From contig JBAZFG010000001.1 in the NCBI GenBank assembly GCA_041653515.1, positions 74,332 to 138,331 of the forward strand: DNA of 64,000 nucleotides, in the 5' to 3' direction. The notes below the pieces were generated by a model. The model searched no databases and was not told the origin of the DNA. It was given only the letters and a program-made list of their open reading frames with translations. Both the position numbers and the translations under genes were made by a program. Origin of the DNA: Candidatus Nanoarchaeia archaeon (GTDB lineage Archaea; Nanobdellota; Nanobdellia; WJKC01). The stretch's first letter is position 1. Every line of letters starts with the position of its first letter. Positions 15,619 to 19,223 of this stretch are shown piece by piece.

Positions 15619-15825
15619 ATATGAGACGACTACGATAAACCAATAAATGATATAATAATAAATGGTGGAGACTGTTACGACTACACATTATTTTATGAAA
15701 ACTTAACAAAAGAATTAGGTTATAATACCACAAGAGTAGACTTACACTTCACAAATAACACACACAGACTATTAATCATCTATGACAAGACAAGCTATTG
15801 CACACTAGACTTAATAAACAAACCA

Positions 15826-16059
15826 TTATGCTACGAAAATGGAAAGTAAATAAACAATTACTATTATTAAAAATACAATAAATACAACTTTTTTAGGACC
15901 ATAAATTTTTAATTTTTCACCTATTTTTATTAATAACTTATCATCTTTCTTTTTTTGCGATACTCTTTTTGAATTAATCTTAGTATTAACACTCATTACA
16001 CCTTTCTTAACTATGCCTGCTGTTTGATTTGTACCTTTTTGAATTATACTATCGCCCAT
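15826..16059 (-). CDS. small membrane protein (77 aa)
   Basis: Single C-terminal TM helix; first gene of a minus-strand cluster. Confidence 0.35.
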   Translation of the reverse strand: MGDSIIQKGTNQTAGIVKKGVMSVNTKINSKRVSQKKKDDKLLIKIGEKLKIYGPKKVVFIVFLIIVIVYLLSIFVA

Positions 16060-16061
16060 AA

Positions 16062-16271
16062 TTATCCTCTTCTAACTTCCTTTAAGAATTCCTCAAAATT
16101 GAAATAATATTTTTTCTTACCCTTCTTGTTCCAATCAACTAGACCTTTTTCCTCCCAATTTTGCAATATTCTATTTACCATTTGTCGCGTTATTCCTAAT
16201 TCTGATGCTAGTTCATCAAGGTCTTTTTTACCCTTACATAAATTAAACTCGTCCCACGTGTTAAAATTCAT
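16062..16271 (-). CDS. small helix-turn-helix DNA-binding protein (69 aa)
   Basis: LASELGITRQMVNRIL HTH segment. Confidence 0.5.
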   Translation of the reverse strand: MNFNTWDEFNLCKGKKDLDELASELGITRQMVNRILQNWEEKGLVDWNKKGKKKYYFNFEEFLKEVRRG

Positions 16272-16277
16272 AAAACA

Positions 16278-17204
16278 TTATTTAATATTATACTCAAAAA
16301 GATAATCATTCCAATTACTATCATAACCTAACTCAAAAACTAATCTAGCAGAATTTAAATCCTTAGGGACTTCTTCAAATAAAACATAACCTTCTTGCTT
16401 AGTATTTTGGTACATATTTTTCCATGTATCTAGTGTTCCACCATAAGATTTTTCATATTGATTACCTTCTAAATCAAGAATAGCCATATTAGAAGGTGAA
16501 AAATAATCACTTTCAGAACCTATATTTTTTACAAAAAAATCAACTCTAAAGTATTCTTCAATAGTGAAATATGAACTTGTCTTAAAGAAACCAAAACTTT
16601 TTAATGTTACTTGAAAATTTCCTTTTGAAATAGTTTGATTAAAAATTGTTTTATTACTTTCATATTCTTCTTCGTATATTTGTTCTATCTCTTCATCAGT
16701 AAAAGAAGGAATTGAAACAAAACTATTATTAGCATTAAGATTCTTGCCATTAGAAGCTAAAAAAGTTATTTCAGCTTTACCATAAGTTGAAAATCCTTTT
16801 TCAATATCACTTTTTTGGACTCTCCATTCAAAAGCCTTGCCTATACTTTGTCCAGTTAATACAATCTGATAATCAACGAATTGAGAAGCAGTTACTGAAA
16901 ATGAATCTTCATAAAGCAAATTATTAAGGTTATCAAAAACTTTAAAGTTTAATTGACCATTAGCGGGTATTTTATTACCAGAAGCATCTTGCAACTGAAA
17001 ATAGAATCTTATTAAATCTGTTTCGTCAGCAGATGAAAAATCTATAATAGTAACTGGATTATACCTTGAATTAGTAACTGTTTGAGTAGTAGATTCTTGA
17101 TTATCAGGCAAATTATTAACAACACTATTACCAGTAGTGCCTGTGCAACCAGCAATAACTAACAAACCAAGTAAGCATAAAGAGGCTATGAGCTTATTAT
17201 TCAT
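16278..17204 (-). CDS. secreted lipoprotein-like protein (308 aa)
   Basis: Signal peptide with lipobox-like LVIAGC. Confidence 0.5.
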   Translation of the reverse strand: MNNKLIASLCLLGLLVIAGCTGTTGNSVVNNLPDNQESTTQTVTNSRYNPVTIIDFSSADETDLIRFYFQLQDASGNKIPANGQLNFKVFDNLNNLLYEDSFSVTASQFVDYQIVLTGQSIGKAFEWRVQKSDIEKGFSTYGKAEITFLASNGKNLNANNSFVSIPSFTDEEIEQIYEEEYESNKTIFNQTISKGNFQVTLKSFGFFKTSSYFTIEEYFRVDFFVKNIGSESDYFSPSNMAILDLEGNQYEKSYGGTLDTWKNMYQNTKQEGYVLFEEVPKDLNSARLVFELGYDSNWNDYLFEYNIK

Positions 17205-17363
17205 AAATAAGATATTAAATCATTATCTTTATTAAGCTTTTGTAAACTAAAAATTAATCATTCTATGGGTTTTATTTCTCAAATTAAGGTCTTGGTAATT
17301 CTTAGCTGGTAAATATTAGTCAGTTAAGAATAGCTGATAGTTTAATTATTGATTTTAAGATAT

Positions 17364-17765
17364 TTAAGTTATTTTCTTAAATTCCTCAATCCTTTTTGAA
17401 TGTTCAATTTCCCAGTCTTTATCAGACTCATTAGGCTTATAGCATTCTATAAATTCAATATTATTACTTATTGTTCTTAATAATTCTCTTGCTTTTTTTG
17501 TTGGGTGCGAAGCACATATGATTACATCACATCCTTTTTCTTTTAATGGAATTAAATATTTCTTTAGCCAAGCAGGAGCGTCTCCAACGCTACAAATCCC
17601 TATTATTTTTCCATTATGGATAAAACTTAAACAAAAATCTTTTCTTATTTTTGGTCTCAAAACACAAATACTTGATTTAAAATATTCTTCCAGAATTTTT
17701 TTTATTGTCGTGCTTTTACCAATTTTTGCTTTACCTTCAAAACAGATTATTTTAGGGTTATCCAT
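17364..17765 (-). CDS. mini P-loop NTPase / NMP-kinase-like protein (133 aa)
   Basis: Walker A GKAKIGKST right after the start MDNPKIICFEG. The ORF-track N-terminal extension (MLLNLVLI x3) is read-through of the tandem repeat and is rejected. Confidence 0.5.
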   Translation of the reverse strand: MDNPKIICFEGKAKIGKSTTIKKILEEYFKSSICVLRPKIRKDFCLSFIHNGKIIGICSVGDAPAWLKKYLIPLKEKGCDVIICASHPTKKARELLRTISNNIEFIECYKPNESDKDWEIEHSKRIEEFKKIT

Positions 17766-17790
17766 AAATAAATCAATAAAATCACTTTTT

Positions 17791-17886
17791 AAAAGCATTA
17801 TTAATACTAAATTTAAAAGCATTATTAATACTAAATTTAAAAGCATTATTAATACTAAATTTAAAAGCATTATTAATACTAAAAAA
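17791..17886. repeat. 24-bp tandem repeat, ~3.75 copies (aaaagcattattaatactaaattt), immediately upstream of the P-loop gene
   Basis: Perfect head-to-tail copies at 17791, 17815 and 17839, with a partial copy at 17863. Confidence 0.9.
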
Positions 17887-17937
17887 ACATTTCTTTTATA
17901 CTTCGTATGATGTTACTATAATAAATAGCTCCAAAAG

Positions 17938-18474
17938 TCACTTTAAAAGAATATTCATTAATTCACTTAAAGTCTTAAATCCATATTCTACTGCAAATTT
18001 ATCTCTTTTTACCTCAGGGTCTTTTGCTCCATGAAAAAGATTATTTCTAATAGCATACCAGAATTCAACCATGTTTTCCCAATCATCAATAGACCGTATA
18101 ACACCTTTTCTTTTTACAGCTTCTTGAGGTGTTTGCTGATTTAACTCATCATGAGAACAATTCCACCATTTAATCTCTTGAGTATTATCTAAATCTCTTG
18201 AAGCGTCACCTAAAGGAATTTTATTTAACTCTTCAATTATTGTTTCCCAATTATTTTTTAATTTTTCATTAGATTTAATCTCTTCAAAATAATCATTTTT
18301 TATATTAACATCTTGTTTAAGCTTCTGAATAGCTTGTCTATCCTGTTTGGCATCATGATACAGTTGTGTCTTTAAATGAGCAATAAAAGCGAGATATTCA
18401 AAAACAAATTTAGAAAAATAATCCTCTTCTGTTGCTTTAATATGCCAAGCATTAATTAATCTTTTATAATTCAT
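17938..18474 (-). CDS. hypothetical protein with C-terminal HEPN-like Rx4H motif (AIRNNLFHG), candidate RNase
   Basis: 178 aa, alpha-helical, with an RNxxxH motif near the C-terminus as in HepT/Abi-type HEPN domains. Motif-level evidence only. Confidence 0.35.
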   Translation of the reverse strand: MNYKRLINAWHIKATEEDYFSKFVFEYLAFIAHLKTQLYHDAKQDRQAIQKLKQDVNIKNDYFEEIKSNEKLKNNWETIIEELNKIPLGDASRDLDNTQEIKWWNCSHDELNQQTPQEAVKRKGVIRSIDDWENMVEFWYAIRNNLFHGAKDPEVKRDKFAVEYGFKTLSELMNILLK

Positions 18475-18611
18475 AAGTTAACTAAAGTAAAATTAACTTA
18501 TATCCTTTTGTTAAAATAAGATAGGAATTAATAAATTACTTAAACAACAAATTAATTAATATTATTTAGAGCCTTTAATATTTAATTGGGTAATTCCGAG
18601 TTGAATATACT

Positions 18612-19223
18612 TCATTCTAGCATATTACTTGTTTTGTCTTCACGCACGTGCCAGAAGTAAAGCCAGTCAGGCCCTGCGCTGAACTCTATTATGTGATTCT
18701 TGATTGGTAAGCCTTTTAGTTTATCTAACACACTAAGTAATTCTTTGTAAGGAATTACTTCCTGACCATGTTTTATTAATACCCTGCCATCAGCACCTAA
18801 TCTTATGTGTTCATGCATTATTCCTTCCCTGTTAAGTTTGCTGACTGGGCCCCCATGCATTGCCTCAATTATTATTGAGGTAGTAAACACTAATATGTTC
18901 CCTGAATATTTATTGTTGAGCGGCACGTAATCCTGAACTATTGCCACATAACCATCATTATTTAATTTGCTGATGAACTCGCGCGCTTCATAAGGGCTGC
19001 ACTTAAGTTTTCGCGGACAATTAGTTGACTGGCCTAAACGCTCGCTTCGGACCATAACTAACTCACGGTTCATTAAGAAATTATTAACCTCCTCTTTTTG
19101 TGACTCATGGTTATTAACAAATAAAGTGCTTGGTGTTGGTAGGCCCCACTCTTTTAGTTTAATAATCCCTTTTATCTTATCATATTCATCAAAATTCATC
19201 TTAATTTTTCTCTTAATAATCAA
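18612..19223 (-). CDS. hypothetical protein (203 aa)
   Basis: ORF with coding-like composition; no family recognised. Confidence 0.35.
   Translation of the reverse strand: MIIKRKIKMNFDEYDKIKGIIKLKEWGLPTPSTLFVNNHESQKEEVNNFLMNRELVMVRSERLGQSTNCPRKLKCSPYEAREFISKLNNDGYVAIVQDYVPLNNKYSGNILVFTTSIIIEAMHGGPVSKLNREGIMHEHIRLGADGRVLIKHGQEVIPYKELLSVLDKLKGLPIKNHIIEFSAGPDWLYFWHVREDKTSNMLE

Follow-up and report, generated by a model that had tools for sequence, protein, structure and literature searches.

A mobile, probably HEPN-like protein family, often embedded in type I restriction-modification operons, and its solo copy in a Candidatus Nanoarchaeia genome

When a small gene with an apparent HEPN RNase motif lies beside a gene for a miniature P-loop NTPase, do the two form one toxin or defence module, or does each belong to a family of its own? 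The question is raised by a 64-kb stretch, hereafter the window, of a metagenome-assembled genome (MAG) of Candidatus Nanoarchaeia (DPANN). An original prediction, made from the sequence of this stretch, claimed two adjacent open reading frames (ORFs) on the minus strand, a HEPN-like ORF of 178 amino acids (aa) and a P-loop ORF of 133 aa; both are present, the former at positions 17938 to 18474 and the latter at positions 17364 to 17765. Overall, the explanation favoured here, with moderate confidence, is that the 178-aa ORF is a solo copy of a mobile family, as yet without annotation, of small all-alpha proteins, which is most likely a divergent branch of the HEPN superfamily with a putative RNase activity and a putative role in defence. 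The adjacent P-loop NTPase would be the product of an unrelated, rare and lineage-specific gene that became a neighbour by chance.

The HEPN-like protein and its family

The 178-aa protein is 100% identical to the NCBI product WC307_00550 (P0001). Its motif RNNLFH, an Rx4H motif in which R143 and H148 would be a putative catalytic dyad, comprises residues 143 to 148 (R143-N-N-L-F-H148), the codons of which occupy positions 18031 to 18048 of the minus strand, as read from the sequence and from alignment A3. The protein was predicted to end with AIRNNLFHGAK; the motif is real, but the C-terminus lies 30 residues further on. Taken alone, an Rx4H motif is weak evidence, since it is found in 9 of the 73 ORFs of at least 120 aa in the window, and about 0.1 Rx4H and about 0.03 RNx3H motifs are expected by chance per 178 aa. 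Conservation among homologous sequences lifts the motif above chance.

Three alignments were used: a narrow one (A1), one of four sequences for the P-loop protein (A2), and a broad one of 47 diverse sequences (A3). Among 26 close homologues with 54-66% identity, R143, N144, N145, F147, H148 and G149 are all invariant. The alignment of these homologues contains 39 invariant columns, and the window copy keeps all 39 of them; therefore, it is not visibly decaying. In A3, where the mean column identity is 23%, R143 and H148 are the sole invariant columns, while N145, L146, F147, G149, K151 and R157 are each at least 90% conserved. A motif of the Rx4H type is kept by 218 of 224 full-length family members. 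The residue that follows the arginine is usually polar in HEPN motifs; in the window protein it is N144. The original prediction had envisaged that RNxxxH might fall in a non-conserved position across homologues; it stands at the most conserved position of a large family. The family has in addition a conserved N-terminal motif of its own, W-x-x-A...D-x-F-x-x-F. A loop-rich insert at residues 86 to 131 (positions 18082 to 18219, minus strand), with an invariant W104-N105-C106 in the motif WWNC, was delimited from A3 and the AlphaFold2 model; it is restricted to the subclade that is often embedded in restriction-modification (R-M) operons, and the relatives of 150-170 aa in A3 do not have it.

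More than 357 homologues at 54-66% identity were found in Omnitrophota, Deltaproteobacteria, bacteria of the candidate phyla radiation (CPR) and archaea. Searching 1.84 billion representative proteins with a profile gave at least 398 clusters (50% identity) at E<=1e-3, whose members include 'minimal' relatives of 150-170 aa and extended ones of 290-310 aa. In a scan of species-representative genomes, 46 loci were recovered from very diverse bacteria and archaea, including another Nanoarchaeota genome, Bathyarchaeia, Methanobacteriota, Thermoplasmata, many CPR phyla, Omnitrophota and Proteobacteria. The window protein had no tblastn match in plasmid and phage collections, and 2.9 million viral contigs held just two weak relatives. 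The family is horizontally mobile and patchy in distribution, and by these searches almost absent from phages and plasmids. Two further observations concern individual members. P0152, P0158, P0160 and P0167-P0169 (289-308 aa) are longer at the C-terminus by a domain of about 120 aa that has no Pfam match. An alphaproteobacterial MAG has the family gene as two overlapping ORFs (L057, 5791-6527), the result of either a frameshift in a pseudogene or an assembly error.

The AlphaFold2 model of the 178-aa protein is all-alpha, with a predicted local distance difference test score (pLDDT) of 86.5 and a predicted template modelling score (pTM) of 0.83. Its helices comprise residues 19-38, 45-68 and 70-85, followed by a loop at 86-131 and by two further helices at 132-147 and 156-177. 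In the insert, the pLDDT is about 60 at residues 91-100 and 91-94 at residues 101-130, and DSSP assigns almost no regular secondary structure to residues 86-131. The Rx4H motif straddles the C-terminal end of helix 132-147, the penultimate one, and the beginning of the loop that leads to helix 156-177. HEPN domains carry Rx4-6H where the penultimate helix ends, and an insert between helices 2 and 3 is common (PMC3710099, section 7). The layout of the model agrees with this description in a comparison made at the level of secondary structure only.

Weak profile matches point in the same direction. Those of distant relatives repeatedly land on HEPN-containing models and span the motif, namely CARF_HEPN (E 9.6e-4), Cas13-ApeA (1e-3) and Cas13a (1.9e-3 and 2.5e-3) in PADLOC, and HEPN_RiboL-PSP (0.0024) and HEPN_Apea (0.032) in Pfam. 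The strongest profile links lead to two uncharacterised entities, the C-terminal third of DzbB, from the Dazbog system, and MauJ. The PADLOC model of DzbB is matched by 20 of the 47 members (best E 4.9e-7) at profile positions 231-341 of 341, with the Rx4H region covered. MauJ (PF17419), a Pfam family of unknown function, is matched by distant members at 2.7e-5 and by the consensus of a subgroup at 4.6e-5; the match is nearly full length (profile positions 3-115 of 116), yet it scores 24.7 bits against a gathering score of 28, and neither the window protein nor the consensus of its subclade matches MauJ. Being the best Pfam neighbour, MauJ adds no function to the family. Overall, sequence and model suggest that the 178-aa protein probably belongs to the HEPN superfamily, and the HEPN part of the original prediction is largely supported by the conservation of the motif, its position on the penultimate helix and the weak matches of relatives, although Foldseek did not recover a HEPN structure.

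Type I restriction-modification operons and other contexts

The contexts of the family were established from look-ups of close homologues and from loci in genomes and metagenomes. Exact-sequence look-ups of six close homologues placed five of them in type I R-M operons and one, on a Falkowbacteria contig, by itself. In four look-ups the gene stands between hsdM and hsdS, with its start overlapping the end of hsdM by 11 nucleotides; in the fifth operon it lies directly upstream of hsdS-hsdR, and hsdM was not called. Hidden Markov models (HMMs) of the hsd genes were built from the operons found in this way. Among the 46 genome loci, 11 have the arrangement hsdM-X-hsdS or X-hsdS-hsdR, X being the family gene. 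All 11 are at least 53% identical to the window protein and fall in the 16 closest genome loci (L017-L032, at least 51% identity), in which another five (L023, L026, L027, L028 and L030), several of them from CPR bacteria, are solo. Hsd genes are likewise present at 19 of the 80 metagenome loci, with 11 of the 21 closest loci among them. Overall, R-M operons house about one in four of all loci and roughly half of those of the closest relatives; the remainder are solo in variable contexts.

HEPN genes linked to R-M systems are an established theme, with at least 16 clades that have been read by analogy to PrrC (PMC3710099). The placement of the gene between hsdM and hsdS suggests a second line of defence like that of PrrC, tied to the methyltransferase core. 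Outside R-M operons, no conserved partner was found among 114 loci, the best candidate clusters occurring in four to five loci. Individual relatives do have neighbours of the defence-island type, such as a Schlafen-type helicase and a UvrD-type helicase. A relative on a Sphingomonas plasmid lies near a Dam/DpnII R-M pair and SMEK/DUF2326, and one on a Methylocystis plasmid lies near Fic and an AAA ATPase.

Several gene groups seen around family members deserve mention in their own right. On the Methylocystis iwaonis plasmid pSS37A-Re-4 (L063, 3432-5552), an AAA ATPase of 349 aa, a hypothetical protein of 156 aa and a distant family member of 196 aa are encoded, in this order, in an apparent operon, which may be a distinct three-gene system and which adjoins Fic, CopG and a ThiF/E2/multiubiquitin cluster. 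A different three-gene set, encoding proteins of about 250-320 aa (SMEK in L064), about 75-80 aa (MC6) and about 570-590 aa (DUF2326/CTD10), recurs in type I R-M operons that bear the HEPN-like gene (L012, 6858-9576; L014, 6705-9569) and is also found at L064 (1926-4819); on the Sphingomonas plasmid the set lies directly upstream of the distant family member. Large proteins of about 1500-1600 aa are encoded immediately upstream of the family gene and on the same strand at L039 (1473-5981), L049 (921-5753) and L052 (903-5753), that is, in at least three loci of different phyla and in four in later clustering; in the one at L039, Pfam gave no domain at E<=1e-5.

Known systems and competing explanations

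The known genes closest in kind are the HEPN families embedded in R-M systems, such as ApeA/BMEI1217, AbiU2, AbiJ and Ymh (Anantharaman et al. 2013, PMC3710099). Like these, the family is small and all-alpha, has R[N]xxxH where the penultimate helix ends, has spread horizontally in a patchy manner, is frequently embedded in R-M or defence loci, and has weak matches to HEPN_Apea, Cas13-ApeA and HEPN_RiboL-PSP. Unlike them, it is not recognised by current Pfam HEPN models and finds no solved HEPN fold in Foldseek, and it has its own N-terminal motif, the WWNC insert in the subclade of the window protein, and a specific position relative to hsdM and hsdS. The placement of the window gene among R-M-associated or solo HEPN-like defence genes, an already known kind, is largely supported, although the family itself is unannotated. 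Three features are of modest interest: the hsdM-X-hsdS arrangement is conserved, the family has spread across domains as far as DPANN and CPR genomes, and it is linked to DzbB through the C-terminal part of the latter.

PrrC and RloC are anticodon nucleases with a large N-terminal ABC ATPase domain. Linked to type I R-M (PrrI), they resemble the R-M-embedded family members in that a gene for a HEPN-type nuclease lies inside an hsdMSR operon, and this likeness of placement suggests a latent RNase that is checked by the R-M complex and released when R-M is neutralised. The family differs from PrrC and RloC in that it consists of a single domain of 150-180 aa; the window protein has no NTPase motif, and its gene is without any R-M neighbour.

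A mechanism can be proposed. R143 and H148, together with N144, would form an RNase site where the penultimate helix ends; dimerisation would probably complete this site, as in other HEPN enzymes. The protein may be a latent, metal-independent endoribonuclease that upon infection or stress would cleave RNA and arrest the cell, leading to abortive infection or dormancy. Copies embedded in R-M operons could be controlled by the R-M complex, as PrrC is, or could guard it, while solo copies, the window gene included, may act like single-gene HEPN defence proteins.

A further comparison is offered by the Dazbog system, which consists of DzbA (DUF262) and DzbB. It is reportedly the subject of Millman et al. 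2022 and Stokar-Avihail et al. 2022, and the Dazbog papers cited here assign no domain to DzbB. The C-terminal third of the DzbB profile is matched by the family, and both are tied to systems that read DNA modification. The N-terminal two thirds of the 341-position profile have no counterpart in the 178-aa protein, which itself has no match to DzbB at E up to 1 and no adjacent DUF262 gene; among the six neighbouring ORFs, no DUF262 match was found at E up to 1. Membership of the window locus in Dazbog was rejected since a DUF262 neighbour is lacking. Seen from the side of DzbB, positions 231-341 of the PADLOC model (PDLC03836) are homologous to the Rx4H-bearing half of the family (P0214, P0226, P0240 and P0263), which suggests a HEPN-like domain in DzbB. 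The catalytic half of the family may be a relative of the C-terminal part of DzbB. A broader scheme, tentative and somewhat doubtful, would see in the family a shared RNase effector module through which RNA is cleaved in response to what is read of DNA modification. A subclass of type I R-M systems, ordered hsdM-X-hsdS and with the start of X overlapping the end of hsdM, would have the family protein as its integral fourth component, the same catalytic domain would make up the C-terminal part of DzbB, and the Nanoarchaeia copy would be able to act alone or together with an R-M system elsewhere in the genome.

Several results weigh against the explanation of the window gene as a HEPN RNase of defence. 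No Pfam, NCBIfam or PADLOC model matches the window protein, so that the PADLOC check named in the original prediction came back empty for it, and profile searches of PDB sequences with A1 and A3 gave chance matches only (DnaK, YefM). The link to HEPN rests on the motif, the topology and weak transitive matches. In the 64-kb window no HsdM, HsdS or HsdR was found (HMM E<=1e-5; tblastn E<=0.1); therefore, regulation of the PrrC type is inapplicable locally. No antitoxin or regulator for a solo RNase is evident in the window either. Finally, a dzbB deletion in Dazbog proved impossible to transform, 'possibly due to toxicity' (10.1101/2022.05.11.491447), which for DzbB, as a relative of the family, would suit a regulator better than a toxin.

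The last point leads to the competing explanation that survives best, although it is considered unlikely. The family might not be a nuclease at all, and might instead provide a non-catalytic accessory or regulatory subunit, such as a modulator of HsdM2S1 or an antitoxin-like protein, in which the arginine and histidine have a binding or structural role and the fold may be other than HEPN. The position of the gene between both genes of the methyltransferase core would suit such a subunit, as would the apparently toxic dzbB deletion (10.1101/2022.05.11.491447). The same explanation would account for a window protein without a significant match to any curated HEPN model, for MauJ, of unknown function, as the nearest Pfam neighbour, and for the Foldseek search of the model against the PDB and viral structures, in which no solved HEPN structure was recovered. 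On the other side, the invariance of R and H alone at 23% identity is the signature of a catalytic dyad, and all the independent weak matches fall on HEPN-containing models with the motif covered. Moreover, most members are solo, without an R-M partner, which is hard to square with an obligate accessory subunit.

Decidedly less probable is that the window copy is a functionless remnant of a lost type I R-M operon, or a recent passenger without a role in the archaeon. Such an origin would agree with a window that holds no hsd genes, with the retention of the WWNC insert that is typical of R-M-embedded copies, and with the low GC content of the island in which the gene lies, which hints at a foreign origin. 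Against it stands a full-length ORF with all of the 39 invariant residues in place, and even at E up to 10 no Hsd remnants or pseudogene fragments were found beside the gene. Solo copies also recur in lineages with small genomes, as the five of the 16 closest genome loci show, several of which are from CPR bacteria. Nucleotide similarity with homologues ends at the boundaries of the HEPN-like ORF.

If the favoured explanation is true, and the family has both the HEPN fold and RNase activity, a function would be assigned to at least 398 clusters (50% identity) of as yet unannotated proteins, which are spread over many bacterial phyla, CPR among them, and over several archaeal lineages, among these DPANN. 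Type I R-M systems of the recurrent hsdM-X-hsdS form would then be likely carriers of an RNA-targeting second line of defence, and a hint would be gained on the effector domain of DzbB in Dazbog.

The P-loop neighbour and the low-GC island

The P-loop ORF (NCBI product WC307_00545) begins with MDNPK at position 17765 of the minus strand, and its Walker A codons lie at about 17709-17735. Both the mechanical ORF and the NCBI model extend to 17870, which gives 168 aa. Since every homologue in A2 begins at the downstream methionine (the MDNPK start), the ORF is best read as 133 aa. The Walker A motif (G11-x4-G16-K17-S18-T19) is invariant among the homologues. The AlphaFold2 model is alpha/beta (pLDDT 82.7) and opens with a strand at residues 5-10, a loop, and a helix at 17-28. 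Foldseek matches are weak (best E 0.011) and overwhelmingly to P-loop NTPases, including TsaE/YjeE, gluconate and adenosine phosphosulphate (APS) kinases, FtsY and MobB. Sequence and model thus indicate a genuine mini NTPase with a generic fold, to which no specific subfamily is assignable. The Walker A motif of the original prediction is therefore confirmed, whereas its description of the protein as similar to nucleoside monophosphate kinases is not specifically supported. Of its proposed structural check, the HEPN-like half gave an all-alpha model with the motif in a HEPN-like position, while the P-loop half gave no specific kinase fold.

Members of the P-loop family are rare: 5.8 billion proteins yielded 36 at E<=1. 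In the five independent contexts of the family the neighbours are unrelated, namely, at two loci, a roughly 450-aa protein, and further IF5A, a beta-helix protein and a type IIG-like methyltransferase locus. Outside the gene itself, the window shows no synteny with other P-loop-bearing contigs. The two neighbours of about 450 aa, at L006 (3-1343) and L068 (1562-2968), are 25% identical (E 1e-16); the former has no Pfam match, for the latter no domain is on record, and at L068 the P-loop group comes after a type IIG-like methyltransferase (N6_Mtase/Eco57I). Possibly the P-loop gene is part of a different, undescribed module.

Between the two ORFs lie four perfect tandem copies of a 24-bp unit (17788 to 17883), where 0.01 are expected. 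The unit, TTTAAAAGCATTATTAATACTAAA, is AT-rich and has no further copy in the window. Its eight codons are in frame, and the 168-aa NCBI model starts inside the repeat and reads MLLNLVLI repeats. Possible readings of the repeat are a duplicated promoter, a minisatellite and an N-terminal extension of hydrophobic character.

A P-loop gene beside a HEPN-like gene recalls Las1-Grc3 and HepT-MntA, in which a HEPN RNase is paired with an NTP-using partner. The window locus differs from these in that there is no conserved co-occurrence and no nucleotidyltransferase (MNT) domain nearby, and its P-loop protein is a generic mini NTPase rather than a polynucleotide kinase (PNK) of the Clp1/Grc3 type. 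No MNT match was found among the neighbours, which are the P-loop, 203-aa, lipoprotein and wHTH (winged helix-turn-helix) proteins, and membership of the locus in the HEPN-MNT (HepT-MntA) group was rejected for want of an MNT neighbour. The weakest of the competing explanations, a two-gene toxin/defence or RNA cleavage-and-repair module like Las1-Grc3, in which the kinase-like protein would regulate the RNase or repair its products, can appeal to genes that are adjacent on the same strand at 172 bp, share a low-GC island with a similar GC content at third codon positions (GC3, 0.17-0.18 for both) and belong to patchy, mobile families, and to the distant relative on the Methylocystis plasmid that comes after an AAA ATPase gene, but it is hardly credible, since the P-loop HMM had no match in the 126 scanned loci (46 genome and 80 metagenome loci) or in the eight look-up loci (six distinct contexts), the broad HEPN-like HMM had none in the five independent P-loop contexts at E up to 1, the genes neither overlap nor are coupled across their repeat-filled spacer, and the fold matches are not PNK-specific.

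The pairing of the HEPN-like and P-loop genes is unique to the window, and their adjacency looks like a one-off accident. The module claimed in the original prediction was thus not borne out, and the pair should not be taken as a new system; its boldest form, a new RNase-kinase pair, deserves at the very most the same slight credence. The sole remaining argument for a link is the shared low-GC island. This island of about 3 kb (15650 to 18610) has a GC content of 0.21-0.31 and contains genes for a 77-aa membrane protein, a 69-aa wHTH protein, a DUF4352 lipoprotein, the P-loop protein and the HEPN-like protein, four of the five having a GC3 of 0.14-0.18. The flanking genes have a GC content of about 0.37 and a GC3 of 0.32-0.42. 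No direct repeats of att type, tRNA or integrase were found at the edges of the island, which is flanked by a B12-type ribonucleotide reductase gene and by a gene of 203 aa. The latter (18612-19223), upstream of the HEPN-like gene, has a GC content normal for the genome and probably lies outside the island; it has a weak NCBIfam match to the ATP-grasp enzyme DcsG (E 0.01).

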